Position numbers and translations under genes: made by a program
Origin: an uncultured Gemmatimonadaceae bacterium
GTDB lineage: Bacteria > Gemmatimonadota > Gemmatimonadetes > Gemmatimonadales > Gemmatimonadaceae
NCBI GenBank assembly: GCA_963761305.1
Contig: CAVXGK010000001.1
Span: forward strand, 160,001 to 224,000
DNA: 64,000 bases
Direction of reading: 5' to 3'
The notes under the pieces: generated by a model
The model's database searches: none
What the model saw: the letters and a program-made list of their open reading frames with translations, nothing else
Told to the model about the DNA's origin: nothing
Shown here: positions 31,962 to 45,417 of the stretch, in pieces
How the letters are laid out: every line of letters begins with the position of its first letter
Position numbering within the stretch: position 1 is the stretch's first letter

Positions 31962-31977
31962 GCGGGAAACCTAAGGC

Positions 31978-32020
31978 GGACCGGTGGACCGGTGGACCGG
32001 TGCCGGTGAACCGGTGGACA
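31978..32020. repeat. Octamer tandem repeat (GGACCGGT)n
   Basis: About 5 copies directly upstream of larE. Confidence 0.85.
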
Positions 32021-32186
32021 GCCCCCCTACTTATGTAGTGGCCGCCGGCCCGATTTTGCTACCGCGACACGTGGTGCGAGCGTCATGCGAGCGTCATGAG
32101 AGCGTGGGTGCGCGCCGAGAATCCGTCGCCCTGAGAGGACATTTGGTAGCAAATCGCGGTCGGCGCCCACTTAATAAGTAGAGGGC
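32021..32186. mobile_element. MITE/REPIN-like non-coding element with ~42-bp imperfect terminal inverted repeats
   Basis: Left arm GCCCCCCTACTTATGTAGTGGCCGCCGGCCCGATTTTGCTACC matches the reverse complement of the right arm GCCCTCTACTTATTAAGTGGGCGCCGACCGCGATTTGCTACC. Confidence 0.65.
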
Positions 32187-32331: not shown

Positions 32332-32925
32332 GTGCACTCGGCGGCGAGTCTTGCGCGCCGCGGACGAAAACGCCCGCGGACCGGTAGGCGCCGGCTGCTC
32401 CCGGGTTTTCGACGCCCGTTCCCCGAAATCACTTTCGGTTCATCCGGACTTCACTTTGCTCGAACGGCGACTCACGCCACTCGGCCCACGCCTCACTTTG
32501 CTCCGTTCGAGATTCACTCTGCTCTCTCGGAAATTCACTTCGTGCGGTACGAGATTCACATGCCTCCGTCCCGAGTGCACCCGGCACGATCCCGCATTCA
32601 GTCTGCTCCGGACCGCGCTCCGTCCGCTCTAGACCGCGTGCCGCTTGCTCCGGACCGAGCTCCGTTTGCTCCGGGCCGAACTTCGTTTGCTCCAGACCGA
32701 ACTCCGTTTGCTCCGGACCGAACTCCGTTCGCTCTAGACCGCGTGAAGTTTGATCCGGACCGAACTCCGTTTACTCCGGACCGAACTCCGTTCGCTCTAG
32801 ACCGCGTGAAGTTTGCTCCGGACCGTGCTCCGTTCGCTCGATCCCGCGTTTGCACTGCGACGGACTGCGTCGCGATCGCCCGCGCCCGCATCGAGACGAC
32901 TGAAGACTCGATGCAACCAAGTTGA
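32332..32925 (+). CDS. Possible heptapeptide-repeat protein (may be non-coding)
   Basis: Frame open across the whole 21-bp array (EIHSALS / PDRTPFA repeats); no clear RBS. Confidence 0.25.
   Translation: MHSAASLARRGRKRPRTGRRRLLPGFRRPFPEITFGSSGLHFARTATHATRPTPHFAPFEIHSALSEIHFVRYEIHMPPSRVHPARSRIQSAPDRAPSALDRVPLAPDRAPFAPGRTSFAPDRTPFAPDRTPFALDRVKFDPDRTPFTPDRTPFALDRVKFAPDRAPFARSRVCTATDCVAIARARIETTEDSMQPS
32449..32847. repeat. Degenerate 21-bp tandem array, 19 units, with a 63-bp higher-order duplication
   Basis: Unit starts every 21 nt without indels; 32701-32763 is nearly identical to 32764-32826. Confidence 0.9.
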
Positions 32926-33745: not shown

Positions 33746-33923
33746 GACAACTCCACCTCATCAAAAAGAAATCGTCGAGCGTCCGAGGCGGGGAGAGGGG
33801 GATCGCGTATGTGTTCGTTGGCCTTAAGGGCACGATCCGCGCCGCGCGTCGTGTGATGTACGTCGCAGTCGTGTAGGCGGCGATAGCGAACGGGACATCA
33901 TCAGAAAACGGCTCACGACAGGC

Positions 33924-34316
33924 TGTTCGCGCCACGCGCAACACGCGGTGATAGCCGCGCGCCGAAAGGTTGAGCGTTTCCATGGCCGACGTGACGAGCT
34001 CGCGCGCCGCCGGCGCGATCGCGCCATGCGAAAGCAGCCAGCGCCCCGAGGCGTGCGCGTTGCACCGCACGCCGGGCAAGCGTGCAAACCGGCGGCGCTG
34101 AATCGCTCGGCTCTGCTCGACTCGGGCTCGAATCGTCGTCGACGGCTCGCCGTCACTGGCGCGCTGCATCGCCGAGGGCGCGACCGCGCTCAGCGTGACA
34201 TGCATGTCGATACGGTCGGCAAGCGGACCCGACAGACGGCCGCGATAGCGAACGATCTCGCCTTCGGAACACGTGCACACGCGCGTCGGCTCGCCGGCAT
34301 TGCCGCACGGACAGGG
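33924..34316 (-). pseudogene. comM: Displaced, truncated original 3' end of comM
   Basis: PCPCG...RLSGPLADRIDMHV...LSARGYHRVLRVART; lacks the N-terminus and the last ~35 codons. Confidence 0.9.
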
Positions 34317-34767
34317 TTTCGTTGCCCATCTACGATGGCGGTTAACCGCGCCGAAGCCCATTTCAGGCTACCCGCGCGAGCTCCGGCATGTTGGCGACCA
34401 CCTGCTTAGACGGCGGCTCGACTTGGGTCTTGATCAGAAACAGGCCGCCAAGCGTCTTGGAACGGGAGCCTGGAACCTCCGAAACTGGGAGACCGGCCGG
34501 CATGGTATTCAGCCGTGGTTCTATCCCGCCATCATTGGCTTCCTCGGCTACAATCCGCTTCCGGAGTCCACGACCCGGGGGAACGCCATCCGTCGAGAGC
34601 GCCTGAGTCGCGGCTGGTCGCGAAGCCGCTTAGCGATCGAGGCGGCCGTTGATGAAGGCACGGTACGCCGGCTCGAGGAGGACGCCCTGCGCGTGGCGCG
34701 GCAACCCCTCGGTCGCGTCATCCGGGCACTCCATCTGACGCCCGAGCGTGTGCCCCGGCCCGGTTAG
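34273..34767 (+). CDS. Double XRE-type HTH DNA-binding protein (start uncertain, frame crosses the att site)
   Basis: GDHLLRRRLDLGLDQKQAAKRLG...NWETG and IRRERLSRGWSRSRLAIEAAVDEGTVRRLE. Confidence 0.75.
   Translation: MHTRVGSPALPHGQGFVAHLRWRLTAPKPISGYPRELRHVGDHLLRRRLDLGLDQKQAAKRLGTGAWNLRNWETGRHGIQPWFYPAIIGFLGYNPLPESTTRGNAIRRERLSRGWSRSRLAIEAAVDEGTVRRLEEDALRVARQPLGRVIRALHLTPERVPRPG
34305..34320. repeat. Putative att core, comM-distal junction
   Basis: GCACGGACAGGGTTTC; comM similarity begins exactly here. Confidence 0.75.
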
Positions 34768-34873
34768 TCATCTATCGCTCGAATCACGTCACGGGCGTTT
34801 CATTCGCCTGAACTGGGAAAACTCGATTCCGGCCACGGTAACGAGGCATGCGCTCACGTGTTTCCCCTCAGCG

Positions 34874-36967
34874 TCAAAACGCGGCGTGCAAGCGTATGGC
34901 GTAGATCGAGACCGGTCCTCGGTCCGCGTTGTAGCCGGGGTTCACGACGAACTGATAGTCGAAGCTGAGCGCCAGCCACTTCTTGGCTCCGTACGAGTAG
35001 TAGGCTTCGCTCACCCGTTCTTCGCGGTAATTGAGCCGCCCGTCGCCGATTAAGATTCCCAACCCACCGCCAGCAAAATAGGCGCGGGCCACGGAGGACA
35101 AACCTCCAACCACCCCGCTCACACCGATATTGTCGTTTGGCCGTCGCCACGCAACGCCTTTCAGAGCGCTGCCGAGCGAGAGGCTCTCGCTACAGTCGGT
35201 CCCGCCCAAGATTTCGTCCCGCCCGGGACTCCAACTCGCACGAGAAAACACGCCGAGATCCCGAGTGATTGCCTGCTCGGCGTTGACCACGATGCCGGGA
35301 TTGGTTCGCACCTCGCGCGTCAAGGTGATGTCGGGATAATTGGGCGAAGTGACCGGGAGCGCCACGGCGTCGGCATAGCCGCCCATCGTGCCGTGGTTCA
35401 CCCACCCGAACACGCGGAGTTTGCCCGGCTGCGAGACGAGCGAATACCGCCACTCCCATTCCGCTGCATACTCACCGCGCTCGGGGATGTGAAGGTCAAA
35501 CACGTTGTTGCTGGACACGATGGGCAGGAGGAAATAGCCGACACGGAAAGCCCAGCTCTGCTTGTTAAGCTCCGCCAGAGCGCCATACGTCCAGCTGATT
35601 TGGTCCATGGTCCAGTCGTAGGCGCCTGCGCCGTAGATATTCCAGTTGAGGAAGTTGGTTCGTGGATCATTCGCATAGGTGTTGACATCGAAGTAGTCCG
35701 TGACGGCGAGCCTTCCGGCGGCGACGGTGATCCGTGAGATGTCTTGTGCCCCAGCGAGTTGATTGGGGCCGTCCTCGACTGTTTCTTTGTCACCGCCGAG
35801 ACCAAATGTTTGGCGCAGAATGAGGCGATCGACGACGAACCGCGGCGCCGGAAACTCTGCCTTTTGAGCCTCTCCGTTAGGGAAGGCGGATACCCCATGG
35901 GTCGCATTGAGACCGTATCCCTGGTCGATCTCCGGGTTGAAATACGCCTGACCACCGGTCCACAATTGCACGCCCAGAAATGCGGTCGCGCTCACCGTGT
36001 TTTTCACCTGACTGGCGCCAGACAGGCTGTTCGTTCCCTCGTACGGTGACCGGAAGGCGAAATACCCCTGTTCGATGAACGTTTCTTGGCCGTGGATATT
36101 CCATCGGGCGCTGTCGATGGCTAGGGCATGGCTAGTGTCGCGGACGGGCGCGTACACGCCTGGCCAACTGAGGGATCGACGGAGTCCGAGCCGGAGGCTG
36201 TGCGCGGTCAGTCTTGACTCAAGGCCGGTCCCGGACGGGAAGACGACGCCTCGTTGTCCAAGTCGGTTGAAGAGATACTCGACACGCGCAGCCCAGCTCG
36301 GTGCGATCGCCAGCTCTGCACCTGCCCCGACATCCCAACCCGTGCGCCAGCGCAGCAGTGTGTCGGGATGGCTGCTCGAGACGGGGGTTTCAATAAAGCG
36401 CATTTGCGACGGAGCGAACCCGCCGGTTCCGTAGAACAGCCAGCGATCCGAGACATAGCCGAAGCGGCCGCGCAGCGTTGAGACAAAGTCGAGCTTTTCG
36501 GTGACGGTGCTGCCGTGGGCCGCTGTCCCGGATGCGACCGTTCCATCCTCGAAGAAGTGAGGGAACGAGACGTCGGCCTCGGTGCCGAGAAGAAGCCGCG
36601 AAGACAGCACGCGATTGTATCCGAGGAATGCACCGGCGTCGAGGCTGCCGAACCCATGGCTCGACCACATCGGTCTGGAATCGGAGAGCGTCACGGTGGC
36701 GCTGCCAGGACGGTAGCCGACATGGCCGCCGGCGTACCATCCGCTCCACTCACGGCTGGCGTCGGCGGTCGCATGAACGGGCAGCTGGGCGTCGACGTCG
36801 CCAGCCCGCGTGGCAGCAAGCGCCACGATCGCCGCGGGGACGAGAAGGCCGATCGTCGGATGTCGACGCTTCGTGGTTCGAGACGCCAATGGCGTGGCCC
36901 AAGCAGCGGCGGGCGTGCGGGCGAGCCCCCTGATGCGACCACTTGCGCGAGGAAAATTTCCTTCCAT
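34874..36967 (-). CDS. mnoP: MnoP-like high-affinity Mn2+ porin (Omp25-like N-terminal barrel plus OprB-family porin)
   Basis: WSGWYAGGHVGY N-domain; WNIHGQETFIEQGY...FPNGEAQKA...NPGYNADRGPVSI...RLHAAF; terminal Phe; divergent from mntH. Confidence 0.8.
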   Translation of the reverse strand: MEGNFPRASGRIRGLARTPAAAWATPLASRTTKRRHPTIGLLVPAAIVALAATRAGDVDAQLPVHATADASREWSGWYAGGHVGYRPGSATVTLSDSRPMWSSHGFGSLDAGAFLGYNRVLSSRLLLGTEADVSFPHFFEDGTVASGTAAHGSTVTEKLDFVSTLRGRFGYVSDRWLFYGTGGFAPSQMRFIETPVSSSHPDTLLRWRTGWDVGAGAELAIAPSWAARVEYLFNRLGQRGVVFPSGTGLESRLTAHSLRLGLRRSLSWPGVYAPVRDTSHALAIDSARWNIHGQETFIEQGYFAFRSPYEGTNSLSGASQVKNTVSATAFLGVQLWTGGQAYFNPEIDQGYGLNATHGVSAFPNGEAQKAEFPAPRFVVDRLILRQTFGLGGDKETVEDGPNQLAGAQDISRITVAAGRLAVTDYFDVNTYANDPRTNFLNWNIYGAGAYDWTMDQISWTYGALAELNKQSWAFRVGYFLLPIVSSNNVFDLHIPERGEYAAEWEWRYSLVSQPGKLRVFGWVNHGTMGGYADAVALPVTSPNYPDITLTREVRTNPGIVVNAEQAITRDLGVFSRASWSPGRDEILGGTDCSESLSLGSALKGVAWRRPNDNIGVSGVVGGLSSVARAYFAGGGLGILIGDGRLNYREERVSEAYYSYGAKKWLALSFDYQFVVNPGYNADRGPVSIYAIRLHAAF

Positions 36968-36979
36968 CTCACAACGTAG

Positions 36980-37015
36980 TTAGGTATGCCTAATAAATTG
37001 ACTAGACGAAGCTAG
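36980..37015. promoter_or_regulatory. Tandem DtxR/MntR-type operator boxes
   Basis: Dyad TTAGG-TATG-CCTAA (36980-36993) and CTAGACGAAGCTAG (37002-37015), starts 22 bp apart. Confidence 0.65.
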
Positions 37016-37100
37016 TAACGATCGACCCCGGCGGGCAAGGAGCTCGACGCGGAGCTGCTGATGGACGGCTGGAGGCCAACGGTGGTCCGTTGCTTATTTT

Positions 37101-37114
37101 TTTTATCCACCTAA
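37101..37114. promoter_or_regulatory. Degenerate MntR-type box upstream of mntH
   Basis: Minus strand TTAGGTGGATAAAA shares the TTAGGT half-site. Confidence 0.45.
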
Positions 37115-37165
37115 CTTTGTGGTTACCGTGGCCGCAATTTTATTGCGATCATTTCCGATCGCGAG

Positions 37166-38551
37166 ATGACCAACCCTATCCGCTCGCTCAAAGGCGAGGG
37201 GCCGACTGACGCACCACCGCAACCGGTCGGCAGTCACGACATCGGTTGGCGACGAGCGCGCGCCGCCCCCAGCCTGTCGGAGGTCTACCGGTCAGTTCCG
37301 GTCACGGGCCTGAGATGGTGGCGTCGCGCGCTCGCCTTCGCGGGGCCCGGCTATCTCATTGCTGTCGGTTATATGGACCCGGGTAACTGGGCCACCAGCC
37401 TCGCCGGCGGGTCGGCGTACGGCTACACGCTCTTGAGCGTCATCATGATCTCCAACCTGCTTGCGATCCTGCTCCAGGCGCTGGCGGTCAAGCTGGGGAT
37501 CGCTACGGGGCGTGACCTCGCGCAAGCGGTTCGGGATCACTATTCGCCCAGAGCCGTCATTTTCCATTGGATCATCTGCGAGATCGCGATCGCGGCCTGC
37601 GATCTCGCCGAGGTGATCGGCTCGGCCATCGCGCTCAACTTGCTTTTTCACATCCCGCTGGCATTCGGCGTCCTGCTGACGGGATTGGACGTCCTCATCG
37701 TACTGGCGCTCCAGAGCCGAGGGTTTCGGCTCCTCGAGGCGCTCGTGATCACGCTCATCGCGACCATCTCGGCGTGCTTTCTCTTCGAGCTCATCCTGGC
37801 CCGTCCGGACATCGGGCCGATGCTGCGGGCCTTCGTCCCCGCCACGGAAATCGTCAAGAACCGCCAGATGCTCTATATCGCGATGGGCATCCTCGGCGCG
37901 ACCGTGATGCCTCACAACCTGTATCTGCATTCCTCGATCGTGCAGACGCGCCGGTATGAGGAAACGAGCAGTGGCAAGCGAGAGGCGATTCGCTGGGCGA
38001 TCTTCGACTCCTCGCTCGCGCTGATGCTGGCGCTCTTCATCAATGGCGCGATCCTCGTCATGGCTGCCGCAGTGTTCTACCGCAGTGGGCACCACGACGT
38101 CGCAGAAATCCAGGATGCCTACAAACTCCTCACGCCATTGTTGGGCAGCACGGGGGCGAGCCTCGCCTTTGTGGTCGCGCTCCTCGCGTCCGGGCAGAAC
38201 TCGACCCTGACCGGGACGCTCGCCGGACAGATCACCATGGAGGGATTTCTCAATATCCGACTCCGCCCGTGGCTTCGCCGATTGATCACGCGCGGGCTGG
38301 CCATCACCCCGGCGATCATCGTCACCTTCGTGTACGGAGAGCACGGAACGGCCAAGCTCCTCATCCTGAGTCAGGTCATTCTCAGTATGCAGCTGTCATT
38401 CGCCGTGTTCCCGCTGGTCAAGTTCACCTCGGAGAGGGCGAAGATGGGCGAGTTCGTGAACTCGCGCTGGCTCACGTGGCTGTCGTGGACGGTTGCCTAT
38501 CTCATCGCGGCTTTGAATGTTTGGCTCCTGACGCAACTCTTGCTTACCTGA
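37166..38551 (+). CDS. mntH: Nramp-family Mn2+/H+ symporter
   Basis: [40 protein letters not shown]. Confidence 0.96.
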
Positions 38552-38566
38552 TTGGCCCGCTCCCGC

Positions 38567-39073
38567 ATGTACTCGCGTATTCTCGTCCCTCTCGAACATT
38601 CGCCGGCCGACGCAAGCATCCTCGCGCATGTGCGGAAGCTCGCGCGACACTGCAAAGCGTCGGTCGTCCTCATCCATGTTGCCGACGGCTGGGCGGCGCG
38701 GAACGCGCTCGCCCTCAATCTCCGCGAGTCCGAAGAAATCCGCGACGATCGCGCGTACCTCGAGGAGCGACGCGCCGAGCTCGAGGCGGCCGGGATCGAC
38801 ACGGACGCTGTGCTGGCGCGAGGTGATCCGGCGTCGGAAATCGATCTCGCGGCGCGGCGCGAGGGCGCCGATCTCATCGCCATGGCAACTCATGGACATG
38901 GGTTCTTGAATGACATCGTGCGCGGCACCGTGGCCAACGCGGTTCGGCATCGGTCGCTCGTTCCTGTGCTCCTCGTTCGCTCGATTGGCGTATCGGAACC
39001 AGTACGCGCGCTTGATGCACCGGATCGTACCGCCAAGCTGCCGTCTCCCATCTCATCCGAGGACCATTCGTGA
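38567..39073 (+). CDS. Universal stress protein
   Basis: MYSRILVPL, ADLIAMATHGH...GTVANAVRH...PVLLVR. Confidence 0.9.
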   Translation: MYSRILVPLEHSPADASILAHVRKLARHCKASVVLIHVADGWAARNALALNLRESEEIRDDRAYLEERRAELEAAGIDTDAVLARGDPASEIDLAARREGADLIAMATHGHGFLNDIVRGTVANAVRHRSLVPVLLVRSIGVSEPVRALDAPDRTAKLPSPISSEDHS

Positions 39074-39825
39074 CTCCCGCCCGTTCACGACAAAAACCGG
39101 ACGCGAGAGTGGCGCGGCGCGCGGCAACGCGGCGCGGGCCTTCCCCTGCCGACGTGGGTGATCTCACCGGACCAGTCGAGGACTATCTCAAGGCGATTTA
39201 CCAACGCGAACGCAGCGGCGAGCCAGCGGCCACGAATGATCTCGCGATAGATCTGGGTGTCGCGCCGGCCTCGGTTACGGGAATGGTACGTCGGCTAGCG
39301 GAACAGGGGCTGCTCATATACGAACGCTATCGCGGCGTTCGCCTTACCACGCACGGACGGCTTGGAGCGCTACGCACAATCAGGCGCCATCGCGTGATCG
39401 AGGCATACCTTGTCAAGGCGCTCGGATACCGATGGGATGAGGTACACGATGAGGCCGAGCGCCTGGAACATGCGGCATCCAACGATCTGATCGATCGTAT
39501 GGCCGAGGCGATCGGTGAGCCGACAGTCGACCCGCACGGCGCCCCCATCCCGAGCCGCGAAGGTTCGGTCGCAGAGGCGCAGTACCGAACGCTCAGGGAG
39601 CTCGAGCCAGGAATGAGTGCGGACGTGATGCAAGTGGAAGATGAGGATCCCGAGCTGCTACGGTATCTCGCCGAGCTTACGATCGTGCCCGGCAGCACGG
39701 TGCGAATAGTCGAGCGGGCGCCGTTCGGCGGGCCGATTACCGTTCAGATCGATAAACGATCGCGGCAAATCGGTCCGGCCCTCGCCGAACGCATATTGGT
39801 GCGGCCACGCCGTCCCCGCTCCTGA
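39070..39825 (+). CDS. mntR: DtxR/MntR-family metal-dependent repressor with FeoA-like domain
   Basis: EDYLKAIY, SVTGMVRRL, RRHRVIEAYL, EAERLEH, DPHGAPIP. Confidence 0.9.
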   Translation: MTPARSRQKPDARVARRAATRRGPSPADVGDLTGPVEDYLKAIYQRERSGEPAATNDLAIDLGVAPASVTGMVRRLAEQGLLIYERYRGVRLTTHGRLGALRTIRRHRVIEAYLVKALGYRWDEVHDEAERLEHAASNDLIDRMAEAIGEPTVDPHGAPIPSREGSVAEAQYRTLRELEPGMSADVMQVEDEDPELLRYLAELTIVPGSTVRIVERAPFGGPITVQIDKRSRQIGPALAERILVRPRRPRS

Positions 39826-39878
39826 TCTCTCGGCTTCCGAGCACTCGGACCGAAGCGGATTCGCTGGTTCGGTGAGAA

Positions 39879-41417
39879 CTAGCGCCGCCCGACGATCGAC
39901 AGTCCTGTTGGCGTGGGTCGATAACGTAGCGCCTCACCGAGATGTTCACGACCGACGACATCCGACAGACACAAGTCCGCAATCGTCCGCGCCACGCGAA
40001 TGACGCGGTGGTATCCGCGCGCAGACAAGTGCAGCGACTCGGCGGCGTCCATAAGTAAGCGCCGCGCGCTTGTCTCAATCGCTCCGCGCGCAAGCAGCCA
40101 ACGACCAGTTGCGTCCGCGTTGCACGTGATCCGATCCAGTGCGGCGTATCGCCGCCGCTGAATGGCACGTGCCGCCTCGACGCGTTCCCGAATCGCCGAC
40201 GACGATTCACCGGGCTCACTCGCGTCGAGCGCGGGCAACGAGACAGGAGCGAGTGTGACATACATGTCGATGCGATCCGCCAGTGGGCCCGACAAGCGTG
40301 CGCGGTATTTAGCAATCTCTGATTCTGCGCAAACGCACGGCTTTGTCGGGTGGCCGAGGTACGAGCACGGACAGGGATTCATCGCCGCGATGAGCGAGAA
40401 CCGCGCGGGGAACGCCACACTCAACGCCGCCCGCGCGATCACCACGCGCCCATCCTCGAGCGGCTGACGTAGCGCCTCGAGCGCGCCGCGCGGAAACTCG
40501 AGCAGCTCGTCGAGGAATAGTACGCCGTGATGCGCGAGACTCACTTCGCCCGGCCGCGGAATTCCACCACCGCCGACGAGTCCCGCCGACGAGATCGAGT
40601 GGTGCGGCGCGCGGAACGGCCGCGCGGCGACGAGCGCGCCTGATGCCGGCAGCAGCCCGACGACGGAATGAATCGCCGTGACCTCGAGCGCTTCGTCTTC
40701 GGTGAGCGGCGGGAGAATCGACGGCAGGCGCCGCGCGAGCATCGTCTTCCCGGCGCCCGGTGGGCCTACCAGCAAGCAGGCGTGTCCACCCGCCGCCGCT
40801 ATCTCGAGCGCGCGCTTGGCGCTCTCCTGCCCCGAGACGTCGGCGAAGTCCACGCCCTCGTCGACAGGCGCCGCTTCCATCGTCCGCTCGGCGCGTGCGA
40901 GCGATCCCGATTGCAGCGACTCGACGAGCGACGCGAGCGACTCCGCCGTGAACGTGCAGAGCGATCGCACGAGCGACGCTTCGCCGACGTTCGCCGACGG
41001 GATCACTAGACCGCGCAGCCCGACGGTGCCCGCGAGGTGACGCGCGACCGACAACACACCGCGCACCGGCCGAATCGCGCCGTCGAGGCCGAGCTCGCCG
41101 AGAACGACGAGTCCGTCGACGCTTTCAGTGGGCAGCGCACCGAGCGCGACCAGCAGTCCGATCGCGATCGGCAGGTCGAAGCCCGTTCCGGCTTTTCGCT
41201 GATCGCCCGGCGACAGACTCACGGTCACCCGTCGCGCCGGGACGACGAAACCGGAATTCGCGAGCGCGGCCGTCACCCGTTCTCGGCTCTCCTTCACCTC
41301 CCCCGACGGCAAACCCACGATCGTCCAGTGCGGAAGGCCCTGGGCGACGTCGACCTCGACGCACACATCATACGCGTCGATTCCCACGACGGCGGCGGAG
41401 CGAATGGCGGCGAGCAT
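39879..41417 (-). CDS. comM: YifB/ComM Mg-chelatase-like AAA+ ATPase (chimeric: host 5' part, island 3' part)
   Basis: VKESRERV, FDLPIAIG, GPPGAGKT, PFRAPHH, LFLDELLEF, AAMNPCPC, ARTIADL. Confidence 0.95.
   Translation of the reverse strand: MLAAIRSAAVVGIDAYDVCVEVDVAQGLPHWTIVGLPSGEVKESRERVTAALANSGFVVPARRVTVSLSPGDQRKAGTGFDLPIAIGLLVALGALPTESVDGLVVLGELGLDGAIRPVRGVLSVARHLAGTVGLRGLVIPSANVGEASLVRSLCTFTAESLASLVESLQSGSLARAERTMEAAPVDEGVDFADVSGQESAKRALEIAAAGGHACLLVGPPGAGKTMLARRLPSILPPLTEDEALEVTAIHSVVGLLPASGALVAARPFRAPHHSISSAGLVGGGGIPRPGEVSLAHHGVLFLDELLEFPRGALEALRQPLEDGRVVIARAALSVAFPARFSLIAAMNPCPCSYLGHPTKPCVCAESEIAKYRARLSGPLADRIDMYVTLAPVSLPALDASEPGESSSAIRERVEAARAIQRRRYAALDRITCNADATGRWLLARGAIETSARRLLMDAAESLHLSARGYHRVIRVARTIADLCLSDVVGREHLGEALRYRPTPTGLSIVGRR
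40365..40380. repeat. Putative att core inside the intact comM
   Basis: GCACGGACAGGGATTC, 15/16 identical to 34305-34320. Confidence 0.75.
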
Positions 41418-41499: not shown

Positions 41500-43479
41500 A
41501 TGATCATGAGCGTTCGCTCGAGAGACTCGCTTCTGGCCCTGGTCGGCGTCGTCACGCTCGCGCGCGCCGGCGGCGCACAGCGCGTGACCGGGGTCGTCCG
41601 CGACAGCGCGTCGCGCGAGCCGGTAGCGAGCGCCGTCGTGCGACTGTTCGACCCGACTGGGCGCGAGTTGGAGCGCACCATCACCGGGCGCGACGGCCGC
41701 TATCGCCTCGACGCGCTGCCGGCCGGCCGCCAGCTTCGGGTCCTTCGCATCGGGTTTCGCCCGCGCACCATTCCGTTCGCGGGAATCGCTCGCGACACGT
41801 CCCTCGACGTTGTGCTGGTCGGTCTGCCGACGCTCCTCGAAGCCGTGAACGTCGACGATCAACCGCAGTGCGGCCGTCGCTCGGATCGCGCCGCGGCGTT
41901 GGCGCTCTGGGAACAGGCGCGTGCGGCGCTCCTGGCGACCGTCGTCGCGCGCGAATCGCGGCCGCCGCTCATCACGGCTATCGCGTTCGACCGCACGCTC
42001 GATCGACGCGGCCGCATCGTCCGGCAGCACGTCCGTCACGATTCGCTGCCGACGAATCGCCCGTTCATCGCCGCGCGCCCCGTCGCCCAGTTTCGCGACC
42101 AAGGGTACACCGACGGCGTGACGAGCCAGCGTACGTACTACGCGCCGGACGCGGACGTCCTGCTCGACCCCGCGTTCGGCGACGGGCACTGCTTCTCGCT
42201 GCGCCAGGACAAGGACAAGCATCCGGGGCAGATCGGCCTCGCGTTCGATCCGGCGCGCGATCGGCCCGGCATCATCGACGTCGGCGGCGTCATGTGGCTC
42301 GACGTGGCGACGCCGGCGCTCCGCACGCTGGAATTTCGCTACACGAACGTCGAGCGCATCGTCGCCGACGCGGACGCCGGCGGGTTCATCTCGTTTCGTA
42401 CCGCGACCAACGGCCTCTCGGTGATCGATCGTTGGAATCTGCATCTCCCGTCGATCGAGACGACCGCGCCGGCTGCGCAAGGCGTTCGCCCGACGAGCGT
42501 GCCCAAGTGCACGGGAGTTTGCGTGGGGAAGGCTTCGGGCGAGGCGCGCTGGCGCGTCGTCGACATGCACGACGTCGGCGCCGTGATCGCGACCGCCACG
42601 TGGCCCGACGGTTCCGAGTGGCACTCGCCGCTTGGAACGTTCCGCGGCCGCGCGGTGCGGCCCGACAGCACGTCGCCCGTTCGCGACGCTCTCGTGTGGC
42701 TCATGGGGAGCGACGACTCGACGCGCACCGCCGCGGACGGATCGTTCGAGTTGAACCTGTTGCTTCCCGGTCCCTATCCGCTGTTCGCGGCGGAAGCGCC
42801 GGCCGATCGCGTTGTGTTCCAGCAGAACGATTCGCTGAGAGTCGAGATCGACTCCGCGGCGATGCCGCCGTTTCGACTCGTCATTGCGGCGATCGACGAT
42901 CGTATCAAGACTTTCTGCAAGGGCGTCGTCGCGGGACCGGGAAAGATTCTCATGCTCGGACGGGTGCTCCTTCCCGATCGGTCACCGGCGCGCGGCGCAG
43001 CTATCGAGGCGTTCTGGGCACAGTCGGCGTCCGATCTGGGGCACGGCTTCCGCGAGCGCGCGCGCACCGACACGTCCGGCGCGTTTCACGTCTGTGGTCT
43101 CACCCCCGACGACACCGTGCAGGTGTCGGCGACGCTCGACAGTCTCGACGCGTACGTGCGAGACCGATTCCGCGCGGACGGCGGCTCGCCGCTCTTCCAG
43201 GCCACACTCCGACTGGTCGCGCCGCCCTTCCGTTCGCGGATCATGCGTGTGGTCGACGAACGCGGCGATCCGATCGCGAACGCGTCGCTACTAGACGACG
43301 AAACGGGCGAGGTGCGCGAGACGACCAACACCAGCGGCGAAGCGAGCCTCGCGTGGCTGCCGCGCGGCAGTACGAGCGTGACGGTCGTCCGACTGGGCTA
43401 CAGTTCGACGAGCACGACCATCAACGTTGCCGCCGACGACTCGACGGTCGTAGTGGTCTCGATGCACCGCGCGCCATAG
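41500..43479 (+). CDS. Secreted protein with multiple carboxypeptidase-regulatory-like (beta-sandwich) domains
   Basis: Signal peptide; recurring VTGVVRDS...P...T..DGRY/F motifs; RIGF/RLGY. Confidence 0.8.
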   Translation: MIMSVRSRDSLLALVGVVTLARAGGAQRVTGVVRDSASREPVASAVVRLFDPTGRELERTITGRDGRYRLDALPAGRQLRVLRIGFRPRTIPFAGIARDTSLDVVLVGLPTLLEAVNVDDQPQCGRRSDRAAALALWEQARAALLATVVARESRPPLITAIAFDRTLDRRGRIVRQHVRHDSLPTNRPFIAARPVAQFRDQGYTDGVTSQRTYYAPDADVLLDPAFGDGHCFSLRQDKDKHPGQIGLAFDPARDRPGIIDVGGVMWLDVATPALRTLEFRYTNVERIVADADAGGFISFRTATNGLSVIDRWNLHLPSIETTAPAAQGVRPTSVPKCTGVCVGKASGEARWRVVDMHDVGAVIATATWPDGSEWHSPLGTFRGRAVRPDSTSPVRDALVWLMGSDDSTRTAADGSFELNLLLPGPYPLFAAEAPADRVVFQQNDSLRVEIDSAAMPPFRLVIAAIDDRIKTFCKGVVAGPGKILMLGRVLLPDRSPARGAAIEAFWAQSASDLGHGFRERARTDTSGAFHVCGLTPDDTVQVSATLDSLDAYVRDRFRADGGSPLFQATLRLVAPPFRSRIMRVVDERGDPIANASLLDDETGEVRETTNTSGEASLAWLPRGSTSVTVVRLGYSSTSTTINVAADDSTVVVVSMHRAP

Positions 43480-43489
43480 GCTCGTATCG

Positions 43490-43593
43490 CCGGTCCACCG
43501 GTCCACCGGTCCACCGGTCCACCGCCCCCCGTCCACCCGTCCACCCGTCCACCCGTCCACCCGTCCACCCGTTCACCTGTCCACCCGCCCACC
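43490..43593. repeat. Octamer tandem repeat (CCGGTCCA / CCCGTCCA)n, ~12 copies
   Basis: Between convergent genes; reverse complement of the 31978 array unit; overlaps the 3' end of the TPR gene. Confidence 0.9.
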
Positions 43594-45417
43594 CGGCGGC
43601 CGATCCGCGTCGACGCACACGACCTTGATCTGCTGCTGGGCGTACGTATCCATCGGATCGAGATTCTCGAGATACGGCTTCGCCATCTGCGCGAACGTGG
43701 AATCGTCGGAGTGGAGTCCGGACCGCGCAATCGGCAGCACGTCGGTCGCCATTCGAACCAGCCGGCAGCTCTCGACCTTGTCGGTGAGCTTCATGGTTTG
43801 CTGCAGCGCCGTCTGCGCGACAGCCAGCGCCGCGGCTCCGACGAGGAAACGCGATTGGCCGGACGTCTGCACTGAATCCGAGAACGCGAGCATCCGAAGC
43901 GCCGTCGCGAAATCGGCGGTCGCCTTGGTCCCACTGGCCGCGGCCTGATAGAGCGTGTTGCCCTTCGCCGCCGCGAACATCGCGACCATCGACGAGTCTT
44001 CGCCGCTCGCCAAGCCCGCATGCAGCGCGACCAGCGCGCTGTCCGGTTGGCCCAGTTCGATCTCGAATTGCGCGATCCGAAGGTGCCCCTGTCCACGCGC
44101 GAGCCCCGAATCCAACGCCACCGCCTGCTTCGCCGCCGCCAGCGCCTCGGCGACTTTCCCGCGGGCGCGCAGCTCCGTGGCGTTGAGCGACAGGAGATCG
44201 GCGTTCTGTGGAAAGAGCGCGAGCCCTCGCGGAAGAACCGTGTCCGCCTCGGCCTTGATGTACTGCGTGTACAACCAGTACAGGCGAGCGTCCTTGGGAA
44301 ACACGCTCACGCCGTGGGCCAGCGTCTCGATGGACTTGATCGGATTGTTCGCCGAGTGATAGGCGAAACCCAGCCGATAAAAGAACAGTGAATCGCGCCG
44401 GCTGACCGAATCCTGCGCGAGGAGCGTCTCGCCGGCGGCGATGGCCAGCGGCCAATGCTTGTTCTCGAACGCCGCGCGCCATTTCTCCAGCACGAAGCGA
44501 ATGTCGTCGGGATGCGCGTTGCTCAGCGCGATGAGGTATGGCTCGGCGCGCGCCGCGTTGCCGCCGTCGAGAAGCGCGTAGCCGACGCGCGCCGCGAGGT
44601 CGAGGTCCGCGGTGTCGGTGGCGGCCAGTCGGAGCCAGTACGTCGCCGCCCGATCGCGACGGCGCAACGAGTCGAGCGACACCGCCGCGGCCTCGAGCCC
44701 ATGCGGGTTGATCGAGTCGATGGCGAGCAGCGTGTCGGCTTCGGCGAGGACCTCCGCCGCCGGCGCGCCGTTCTGACGCAGCGCCCACACGAGGCACGTT
44801 CGGACGATCGCGCCGCGCGGAAAGGCCGCGATTCCCGCACGAGCGGCCTCCACCGCGCGCAGACCACTTCCCTCGCGAAGCGCGTTCTCGCAGCGGCGTT
44901 CCGGTCCAAGCTGCGCGCGGGCGGCGGTCACTGATCGCGCGAATATCTGCGCGGCCGAGTCGAGCTTCGGCGCCGCCGCATCCGGCAACGGCTGACGCAG
45001 CCGATCGTCGCGCATCAGCATGAGCGAACCGGACAGGCGTGGGCCGGACGGTCCGTTGGTCACCGAGGCCAGCACGAACTCGTCGGCGCGGAAATACTTG
45101 CCCATCGATCTGATGTCCCGCAGCTCGAAGGTCGTGTCGGGGTTGAACCCCGCGCGCTCCATGCGGTACGCCACGTCGTCGGCGTCGATGACGTCGACCT
45201 CCTTCCGATCGATGAGGTGCCACACGCGCGACCGCACGGCGTCCGCCGCCTTGCGGCCGAGCTTCATGTCAGCCCCGCCACGCGGGAAGAAGTTGAGGAT
45301 GAGGAGACCTTGTCGCGTGAACTCCTGCTGCGGGGTCTCTTTCTTCGCTCGCTGGGCGCCTGCCGAAAACCCCGCGAGAACGAGCATGCCCGTCGCACCC
45401 GCAACCATGAATCGCAT
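43573..45417 (-). CDS. Secreted TPR-like helical repeat protein (start could be 45462)
   Basis: Signal peptide; Ala/Leu-rich helical repeats (e.g. FYRLGFAYHSANNPIKSIETL). Confidence 0.75.
   Translation of the reverse strand: MRFMVAGATGMLVLAGFSAGAQRAKKETPQQEFTRQGLLILNFFPRGGADMKLGRKAADAVRSRVWHLIDRKEVDVIDADDVAYRMERAGFNPDTTFELRDIRSMGKYFRADEFVLASVTNGPSGPRLSGSLMLMRDDRLRQPLPDAAAPKLDSAAQIFARSVTAARAQLGPERRCENALREGSGLRAVEAARAGIAAFPRGAIVRTCLVWALRQNGAPAAEVLAEADTLLAIDSINPHGLEAAAVSLDSLRRRDRAATYWLRLAATDTADLDLAARVGYALLDGGNAARAEPYLIALSNAHPDDIRFVLEKWRAAFENKHWPLAIAAGETLLAQDSVSRRDSLFFYRLGFAYHSANNPIKSIETLAHGVSVFPKDARLYWLYTQYIKAEADTVLPRGLALFPQNADLLSLNATELRARGKVAEALAAAKQAVALDSGLARGQGHLRIAQFEIELGQPDSALVALHAGLASGEDSSMVAMFAAAKGNTLYQAAASGTKATADFATALRMLAFSDSVQTSGQSRFLVGAAALAVAQTALQQTMKLTDKVESCRLVRMATDVLPIARSGLHSDDSTFAQMAKPYLENLDPMDTYAQQQIKVVCVDADRPPGGRVDR

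Follow-up and report, generated by a model that had tools for sequence, protein, structure and literature searches.

The comM gene examined here lies in a 64,000-nucleotide stretch (the window) from an uncultured Gemmatimonadaceae bacterium (GCA_963761305.1, contig CAVXGK010000001.1, positions 160,001 to 224,000), next to a 6060-bp island holding an XRE/helix-turn-helix (HTH) frame, a porin gene, mntH, usp and a gene for a DtxR/MntR-family regulator. This unit, which contains no recombinase gene, has exchanged the final third of comM at a TG dinucleotide. We propose that it probably reached the genome as a passenger, mobilised in cis by an element whose large serine recombinase (LSR) targets comM. 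We assign this reading a probability of roughly 0.55. The sequences show the chimeric gene, its TG junctions, the P arm, the lack of an LSR, stacked and ectopic units and purifying selection on the tails; the cycle of the helper element, the transfer of the unit and the activity of the resulting ComM protein are inferred.

Two comM 3' ends in one window

A full-length comM/yifB frame of 512 codons lies on the minus strand (39879–41417). Its protein scores above the TIGR00368 cut-off over its whole length and has a single match in the PDB, the ComM structure 8RXD. The 3' third of the gene is present twice, in frame (39879–40371) and as a displaced copy on the same strand (33870–34311, the left limit being approximate), with no further comM match in the genome. 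An earlier note on this DNA had described such a doubled C-terminus meeting at a 16-bp repeat, and both repeats are found in the sequence (34305–34320 and 40365–40380), identical at 15 of 16 positions and specifying (N)PCPC when read on the minus strand. The copies align without gaps, 6060 bases apart, and their homology runs from the repeat to about 33924. Nucleotide identity per 60-nt block amounts to 33–43 positions over 33921–34340, where the first block straddles the core, versus 13–18 outside. The copies have 76 residues in common over 127 matched codons and are about 62% identical overall. After the core, the intact gene reads CPCS and the displaced copy CPCG, as the note had it.

The G+C content at third codon positions (GC3) changes at the repeat, as had also been claimed. 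It falls from 0.82 in the 5' part (283 of 346 codons) to 0.66 in the in-frame 3' part (104 of 158; Fisher p = 1.6 × 10⁻⁴), whereas the displaced 3' part, at 0.80 (98 of 123), does not differ from the 5' part (p = 0.59). In two relatives, G005 and G017, comM is uninterrupted, and the two genes that come after it are those found 3' of the displaced copy here. The 3' ends of their comM genes are 82–85% identical to the displaced copy in amino acids but only 64% to the in-frame tail, and the distal tail copy of G019 is likewise 82–85% identical to the displaced copy. At the DNA level, the intact gene matches G005 and G017 with an identity of 0.83–0.85 upstream of the core and 0.62 downstream; for the displaced copy the values are 0.27 and 0.77–0.81.

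Separate trees of the two gene parts, which the earlier note had proposed alongside the comparison with island-free relatives, point in the same direction. With 26 rows for the 5' part and 41 for the 3' part (frameshifted copies being missed by the motif search), the window groups with G005, G017 and G015 in the 5' tree (100/100). In the 3' tree, G005, G017 and the distal G019 copy join the displaced tail (94/90), and the in-frame tail falls into a separate clade with the motif SYLGHP (95/91). Approximately unbiased (AU) tests on 18 tails reject the 5'-tree grouping of the window tail with native ends (p = 3 × 10⁻⁶), as well as the 5'-tree groupings of G003 with G025 (4 × 10⁻⁴), G018 with G014 (6 × 10⁻⁵) and G009 with G006 and G020 (8 × 10⁻³); these four, the only groupings tested, were named after the first 3' tree had been seen.

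The displaced copy, of the CPCGNAGEP type, is accordingly the native comM 3' end, in keeping with its similarity to relatives and the shared downstream genes. Its frame is preserved as far as about 33924. Beyond that point it differs from G005, G017 and G019 by a 19-nt gap and smaller changes, and its stop codon is lost. The intact comM is a chimera, in which a host 5' part and a foreign 3' third are joined at the core in one full-length frame. The host part comprises codons 1–348 (40374–41417, minus strand), ends in AAMNP and forms the B half of the attB site; its assignment draws on the 5' tree, its GC3 and the TIGR00368 match. The right crossover dinucleotide TG (40372–40373, minus strand), placed by comparison of junctions, provides the first two bases of the first zinc-finger cysteine codon, and alignment to 8RXD locates the cut point at this same cysteine (PMC11612176). 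Codons 349–512 form the replacement third, of the CPCSYLGHP type (39879–40371), identified by GC3, the AU test, substitution rates and the 8RXD alignment. According to this alignment it covers the zinc finger, the DNA-contact helix, the DRID and SARGY motifs and the C-terminal chelatase domain. The earlier suggestion of an element carrying a diverged comM 3' third thus stands as far as the chimera and its frame are concerned; an integrating element with a genuine attP built for repair is not supported, and the unit has no integrase.

The ratio of non-synonymous to synonymous substitution rates (dN/dS) of the replacement tail against five island-type tails is 0.16–0.19. Island-type tails as a whole give 0.12–0.24 versus 0.05–0.13 for native pairs, with dS near saturation in distant pairs. 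These values indicate that the comM tails of the units are under purifying selection. Among 28 comM genes of the same genus, 14 carry the native CPCGN-type motif at the junction (one as an error-rich variant) and 14 a non-native one, with the caveat that close kin among these genomes do not count as independent cases. At L042 (in G024), L005, L008, L011 and L007, island-type tails occur with no displaced native copy or HTH frame seen nearby, and G009 retains just a small fragment. The tails standing without displaced copy or HTH suggest that swapped comM ends become fixed after the unit has decayed.

A recombinase family that targets comM

The left end of the island consists of a P arm (about 34314–34335) and the XRE/HTH frame (together 34314–34767, plus strand), recognised by a Pfam HTH match, alignment of P arms and in-frame LSR fusions. 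The frame is homologous to the C-terminal part of LSR–HTH fusion proteins whose genes span attP. At locus L051 (genome G463, marked as unpublished) the same HTH forms the in-frame C-terminus of an LSR with PF00239 and PF07508 domains, and at L050 the join is present but out of frame. Where LSR and HTH meet, the DNA forms an inverted repeat with CA/TG at its centre. The 120 best homologues of the LSR comprise 49 long ones, of which 44 run into an ALPFC-type tail, and 71 short ones, 68 of them ending in a motif that fits antisense comM. In genomes G228 and G462 the disrupting integrated form is found, in which comM breaks off after AAMNP and continues at TG into the LSR end. L050, G228, G462 and the homologous proteins support what is seen at L051, and all of them were found with L051 as the query. 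A junction row from G104, likewise unpublished, bears on none of the claims made here. By these junctions, the LSR family targets comM, crosses over at the TG dinucleotide and normally disrupts the gene.

We compared the symmetry of the junctions. Around the crossover, four true or rebuilt attP sites show 16, 15, 17 and 14 matches of 24 in a centred dyad, whereas the P arm of the window joined to its replacement tail shows 5, and five junctions of G015 and G019 show 3–7. In view of this difference, the left junction of the window, with its TG at 34312–34313 (minus strand) between the P arm and the native comM 3' half, is of the attR type and the right junction a plain rebuilt attB without a P' arm. 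This disagrees with the genuine attP proposed earlier, since the reconstructed junction consists of P plus a comM half. The ACGA-N14-TCGT dyad cited for it does exist, but it is centred one base off the TG, where it reaches 10 of 24 as the best of five centres tried; we do not find it convincing and rejected it as an attP signature. Of the proposed analogy to target restoration at tRNA genes, what survives is that the replacement 3' end restores the frame; an integrase of the unit's own, acting on a genuine attP, is not part of it.

The recombinase gene itself spans attP in several cases (L051:8447–10270; P0006–P0056; L091), encoding a two-HTH LSR of ~645 aa as compared with ~506 aa in the integrated form. 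The splitting of the protein on integration is a possible directionality switch. At L108:2426–3940, a family LSR reads into the comM 3' half at a TG junction, in an arrangement opposite to that of G228 and G462. A frameshifted start of the window HTH was considered and dropped, as the same VAHL frame is entered by one fused LSR, P0056.

No recombinase gene and, by Pfam and NCBIfam, no integration or transfer genes were detected in the island. The window's genome, which is 93% complete, contains no PF07508 match and no tblastn match to five LSR queries; its two PF00589 genes lie outside the island. A search of longer proteins with the window HTH returned no close LSR fusion, the best fused matches reaching 41–44%. 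The family LSR has no match among plasmids at 1e-60, and among phages only Bacillus integrases at 28%. In five unit-bearing genomes there is one PF07508 match, in G019, where no tblastn match to the family LSR was obtained.

Units of this kind are found in many genomes. Of 138 loci selected by pattern, 120 of them metagenomic and 18 viral, 88 have the HTH frame back-to-back with a comM tail; none of the 15 viral loci listed, of the 18 found, shows the HTH junction. A scan of genome contigs for HTH loci gave none with a single-sequence query and seven with an alignment query. Among 401 genomes of the phylum, 17 have the HTH and one has a close LSR. In 6 of the 17 (G000, G019, G388, G240, G280 and G074), a full comM, intact or broken by sequence errors, and a displaced tail are present with no LSR between them. 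G063 has an intact comM and a trace of a tail, G228 is disrupted and G099 has lost most of comM; in the remaining 8 the HTH is away from comM or not classifiable. Between the HTH end and an intact comM, no LSR occurs in the six genomes just named or in G015, L048, G479, L111 and L123. Most of the 120 metagenome loci are too short for this comparison; on the far side, two have an intact comM, while an LSR within 10 kb is seen in none.

Whereas the window has a single unit, extra tails are stacked in G015 (three), G019 (two) and G280 (two). In Acidobacteriota, 9 of 251 genomes have more than one comM-tail match, with G479 both restored and stacked. In G462, comM is occupied by an LSR element of roughly 50 kb that includes coupling-protein genes, and two tails lie beside it. 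At site C1 of G280, a whole unit of P arm, HTH, cargo and comM tail sits outside comM; each of its joints is at a TG, and the flanks join into an open frame. Similar ectopic comM tails are found in G586 and at C7 of G462. Homology to the comM 5' part is therefore not needed. Both Gemmatimonadota and Acidobacteriota have like units, be they single, stacked or placed away from comM. At L253/L254 (G586), P arms and HTH frames at non-comM sites are nested next to a comM attR junction.

Proposed delivery as a passenger and competing explanations

Serine integrases are described as recombining attP with attB, and attL with attR when a factor is present, with no other pairings in the account cited (PMC3783163). 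Under the passenger reading, a helper element running from its HTH end through cargo to its LSR end would land in an intact chimeric comM beside an existing unit. Excision between the helper attL and the far attR would then place helper and passenger in one circle with a true P–P' attP. This circle would integrate into, and disrupt, the comM of a new host. A final excision between attL and the inner attR would remove the helper and join the host 5' part to the comM tail of the passenger, and repetition of the cycle would stack units. The carried tail would have two roles, supplying the B' half of the site where the helper lands and preserving a whole ComM. Every step would use a pairing normally allowed to serine integrases. 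Among these pairings, the one by which a host 5' half and a foreign tail become fused at TG is attL with a foreign attR, and its simplest setting is a composite of helper and passenger that integrates and afterwards sheds the helper. Accretion and cis-mobilisation of this sort are documented for cis-mobilisable elements (CIMEs) (PMC5704250).

Several points weigh against this scheme. A complete composite with two intact P arms and an LSR was not found; the G462 composite is partial, and its distal tail has no P arm. No family LSR is detected in the 93%-complete genome of the window and a close one in only 1 of the 401 phylum genomes, nor were a directionality factor or a transfer route identified. 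Extra tails are 83–97% identical within each genome (G280, G240, G388 and G462), which suggests repeated local origin. The model leaves the formation of the first unit unexplained. Direct recombination would account for the ectopic units just as well, and an uninterrupted version of the G280 ectopic target was not found in the 61 family genomes searched.

The earlier note had modelled an insertion akin to that of tRNA-targeting elements. In a version of this that can be set against the present data, the unit circularises with a P-plus-tail junction and an LSR acting in trans inserts it directly into attB, restoring comM in one step. In favour of it are units, at comM and elsewhere, that show no sign of a helper. 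In the window's lineage, moreover, the P arm agrees with the B arm at 10 of the 13 bases adjoining the core, which could relax site selectivity. It would, however, require recombination of attR with attB, which characterised serine integrases do not perform in the account cited above (PMC3783163). The weak off-centre dyad given by SYLGHP-type tails (10–11 of 24) has to be set against the lack of a centred one (5 of 24) and of any dyad in the other tail types, and we consider direct insertion unlikely, though it is the strongest of the alternatives. Little less probable than that is a fresh repair, in which a comM already holding an LSR receives attR DNA from a relative; recombination of attL with attR rebuilds comM with the donor tail, the LSR end is lost through a second, illegitimate joint, and the island is a repair scar and not a unit that travels. 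This accounts for the precision at TG, the constant loss of the LSR and the frequent closeness of tails within a genome, and it agrees with cargo resembling chromosomal genes of relatives, as a second mntH-usp-regulator operon elsewhere in the host genome is 64–72% identical to that of the island (tblastn of its own genome). Yet tails of the SYLGHP and CCYLGHP types form their own clades across several genomes, are mostly lower in GC3 than the adjoining 5' halves and, in genomes whose flank was read, are not directly followed by the native downstream genes, which together suggests lasting lineages of element-borne tails. Whole ectopic units are also harder to account for by repair. Incoming attR DNA could also be the origin of the first units.

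Mending of a disrupted comM by homologous or homology-facilitated recombination with a relative's gene, without a site-specific step at the right junction, is improbable. A crossover within about 30–60 nt upstream of the core could be hidden by the conserved 5' part, and one block of 25 codons (276–300) is low in GC3. This block nevertheless lies within a few points of its neighbours in identity to G005 and G017, and in the swapped pairs examined, identity to the 5' sisters is high up to the TG and falls just past it. The idea is largely refuted by comM tails that are joined at TG to non-comM DNA, at C1 of G280 and C7 of G462. Least probable is a local duplication or an assembly artefact, the latter a possibility named in the earlier note. 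None of the independent contigs listed, which are sparse, bridges the right junction, but an independent contig of 229 bp bridges the left one with no mismatches and the copies are only about 62% identical, which makes an artefact unlikely. The copies moreover belong to different clades, and the architecture recurs in many genomes.

Building on the passenger reading, we put forward a broader idea only tentatively. Recombinase-less cassettes may be a widespread class, using the comM 3' third as a portable landing site, riding LSR elements that target comM, keeping the transformation helicase of the host whole, stacking into arrays, and moving its zinc finger and C-terminal module from lineage to lineage. 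As the gene of the helper spans attP, integration would cut a two-HTH domain off the recombinase and might switch its directionality.

Known systems, cargo and surroundings

Homologues of comM/yifB, which are Mg-chelatase-like, are reported as the target of 12.4% of predicted site-specific LSRs (Durrant et al., PMC10083194), and the Wolbachia element sr1WO is described as an LSR element targeting a gene of this type (PMC9203015). G228 and G462 represent canonical elements of this class, the published ones being compared by target gene and not by exact site. The window unit is similar to them in its target gene, its hybrid junction with a dinucleotide crossover and the HTH gene at one end. However, they encode an LSR and split comM, whereas the unit has neither LSR nor P' arm and comM is a full-length chimera. 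The ssrA islands of Dehalococcoides are described as having no integration modules (PMC3146451). CIMEs, decayed elements that keep attL and attR and allow a helper to land in the attR site at a gene end (PMC5704250), resemble window-type units in the absence of integrase and transfer genes, the presence of putative recombination sites and tandem stacking at one target, which in our case is seen in relatives. Unlike CIMEs, the window unit lies within a gene, between attR and a rebuilt attB that takes the place of attL, and carries 164 codons of its target.

The e14 and phage 21 elements at icd bring a replaced 3' end and have a tyrosine integrase and a true attP. Like the window unit, they supply an alternative 3' end, so that the protein is chimeric but of full length and a fragment of the native gene is displaced. 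In contrast to these elements, whose listed target is icd of E. coli (PMC12540744), the replacement here measures about 490 bp, is about 60% identical in amino acids and comes without an integrase. In the literature searched (titles and the beginnings of abstracts; the supplements of Durrant et al. may list sites) there is no description of a comM 3' replacement or of an LSR–HTH fusion. LSR targeting of comM, its disruption and CIMEs are all known already, and it is their combination here that has no prior description in that literature.

Disruption of comM by mobile elements is usually seen as sabotage of natural transformation (PMC12378983). In the lineages studied here, resolved cases mostly end with a whole comM bearing a foreign C-terminal third. 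This would make a site of conflict into a site of cassette accretion and a route of domain shuffling for a core recombination helicase. Since the displaced native end has decayed, ComM would likely be damaged if the island were precisely lost, and the cargo would in this way be locked in. Island finders anchored on integrases would miss such units, and comM trees built from whole genes would mislead. The LSR–HTH fusion across attP offers a lead on the directionality of recombinases.

The cargo of the island consists of predicted manganese-uptake genes. An outer-membrane β-barrel and OprB-family porin (34874–36967, minus strand; PF13505, PF04966), encoded only once in the genome, could be a manganese porin of the MnoP kind. 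Divergent from it runs an operon on the plus strand (37166–39825) assigned by Pfam and NCBIfam, with mntH (37166–38551), usp (38552–39073) and the DtxR/MntR-family regulator gene (39070–39825). A perfect palindrome, TTAGG-N4-CCTAA (36980–36993), lies between the porin gene and mntH, and we take it to resemble a DtxR-family operator. A scan for promoters and terminators gave results close to shuffle levels.

Beyond the left flank of the island, an array of 21-nt tandem units (32550–32906) lies in overlapping frames of 197 and 118 codons, the longer of which has no Pfam match. Intergenic runs of the 8-nt unit GTCCACC(G/C) occur at 31975–32019 and 43479–43604 in opposite orientations and are REP-like. 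Upstream of a larE-like gene lies a 41-nt inverted repeat (32023–32063 and 32145–32185), with arms that are 78% complementary and separated by 81 nt.

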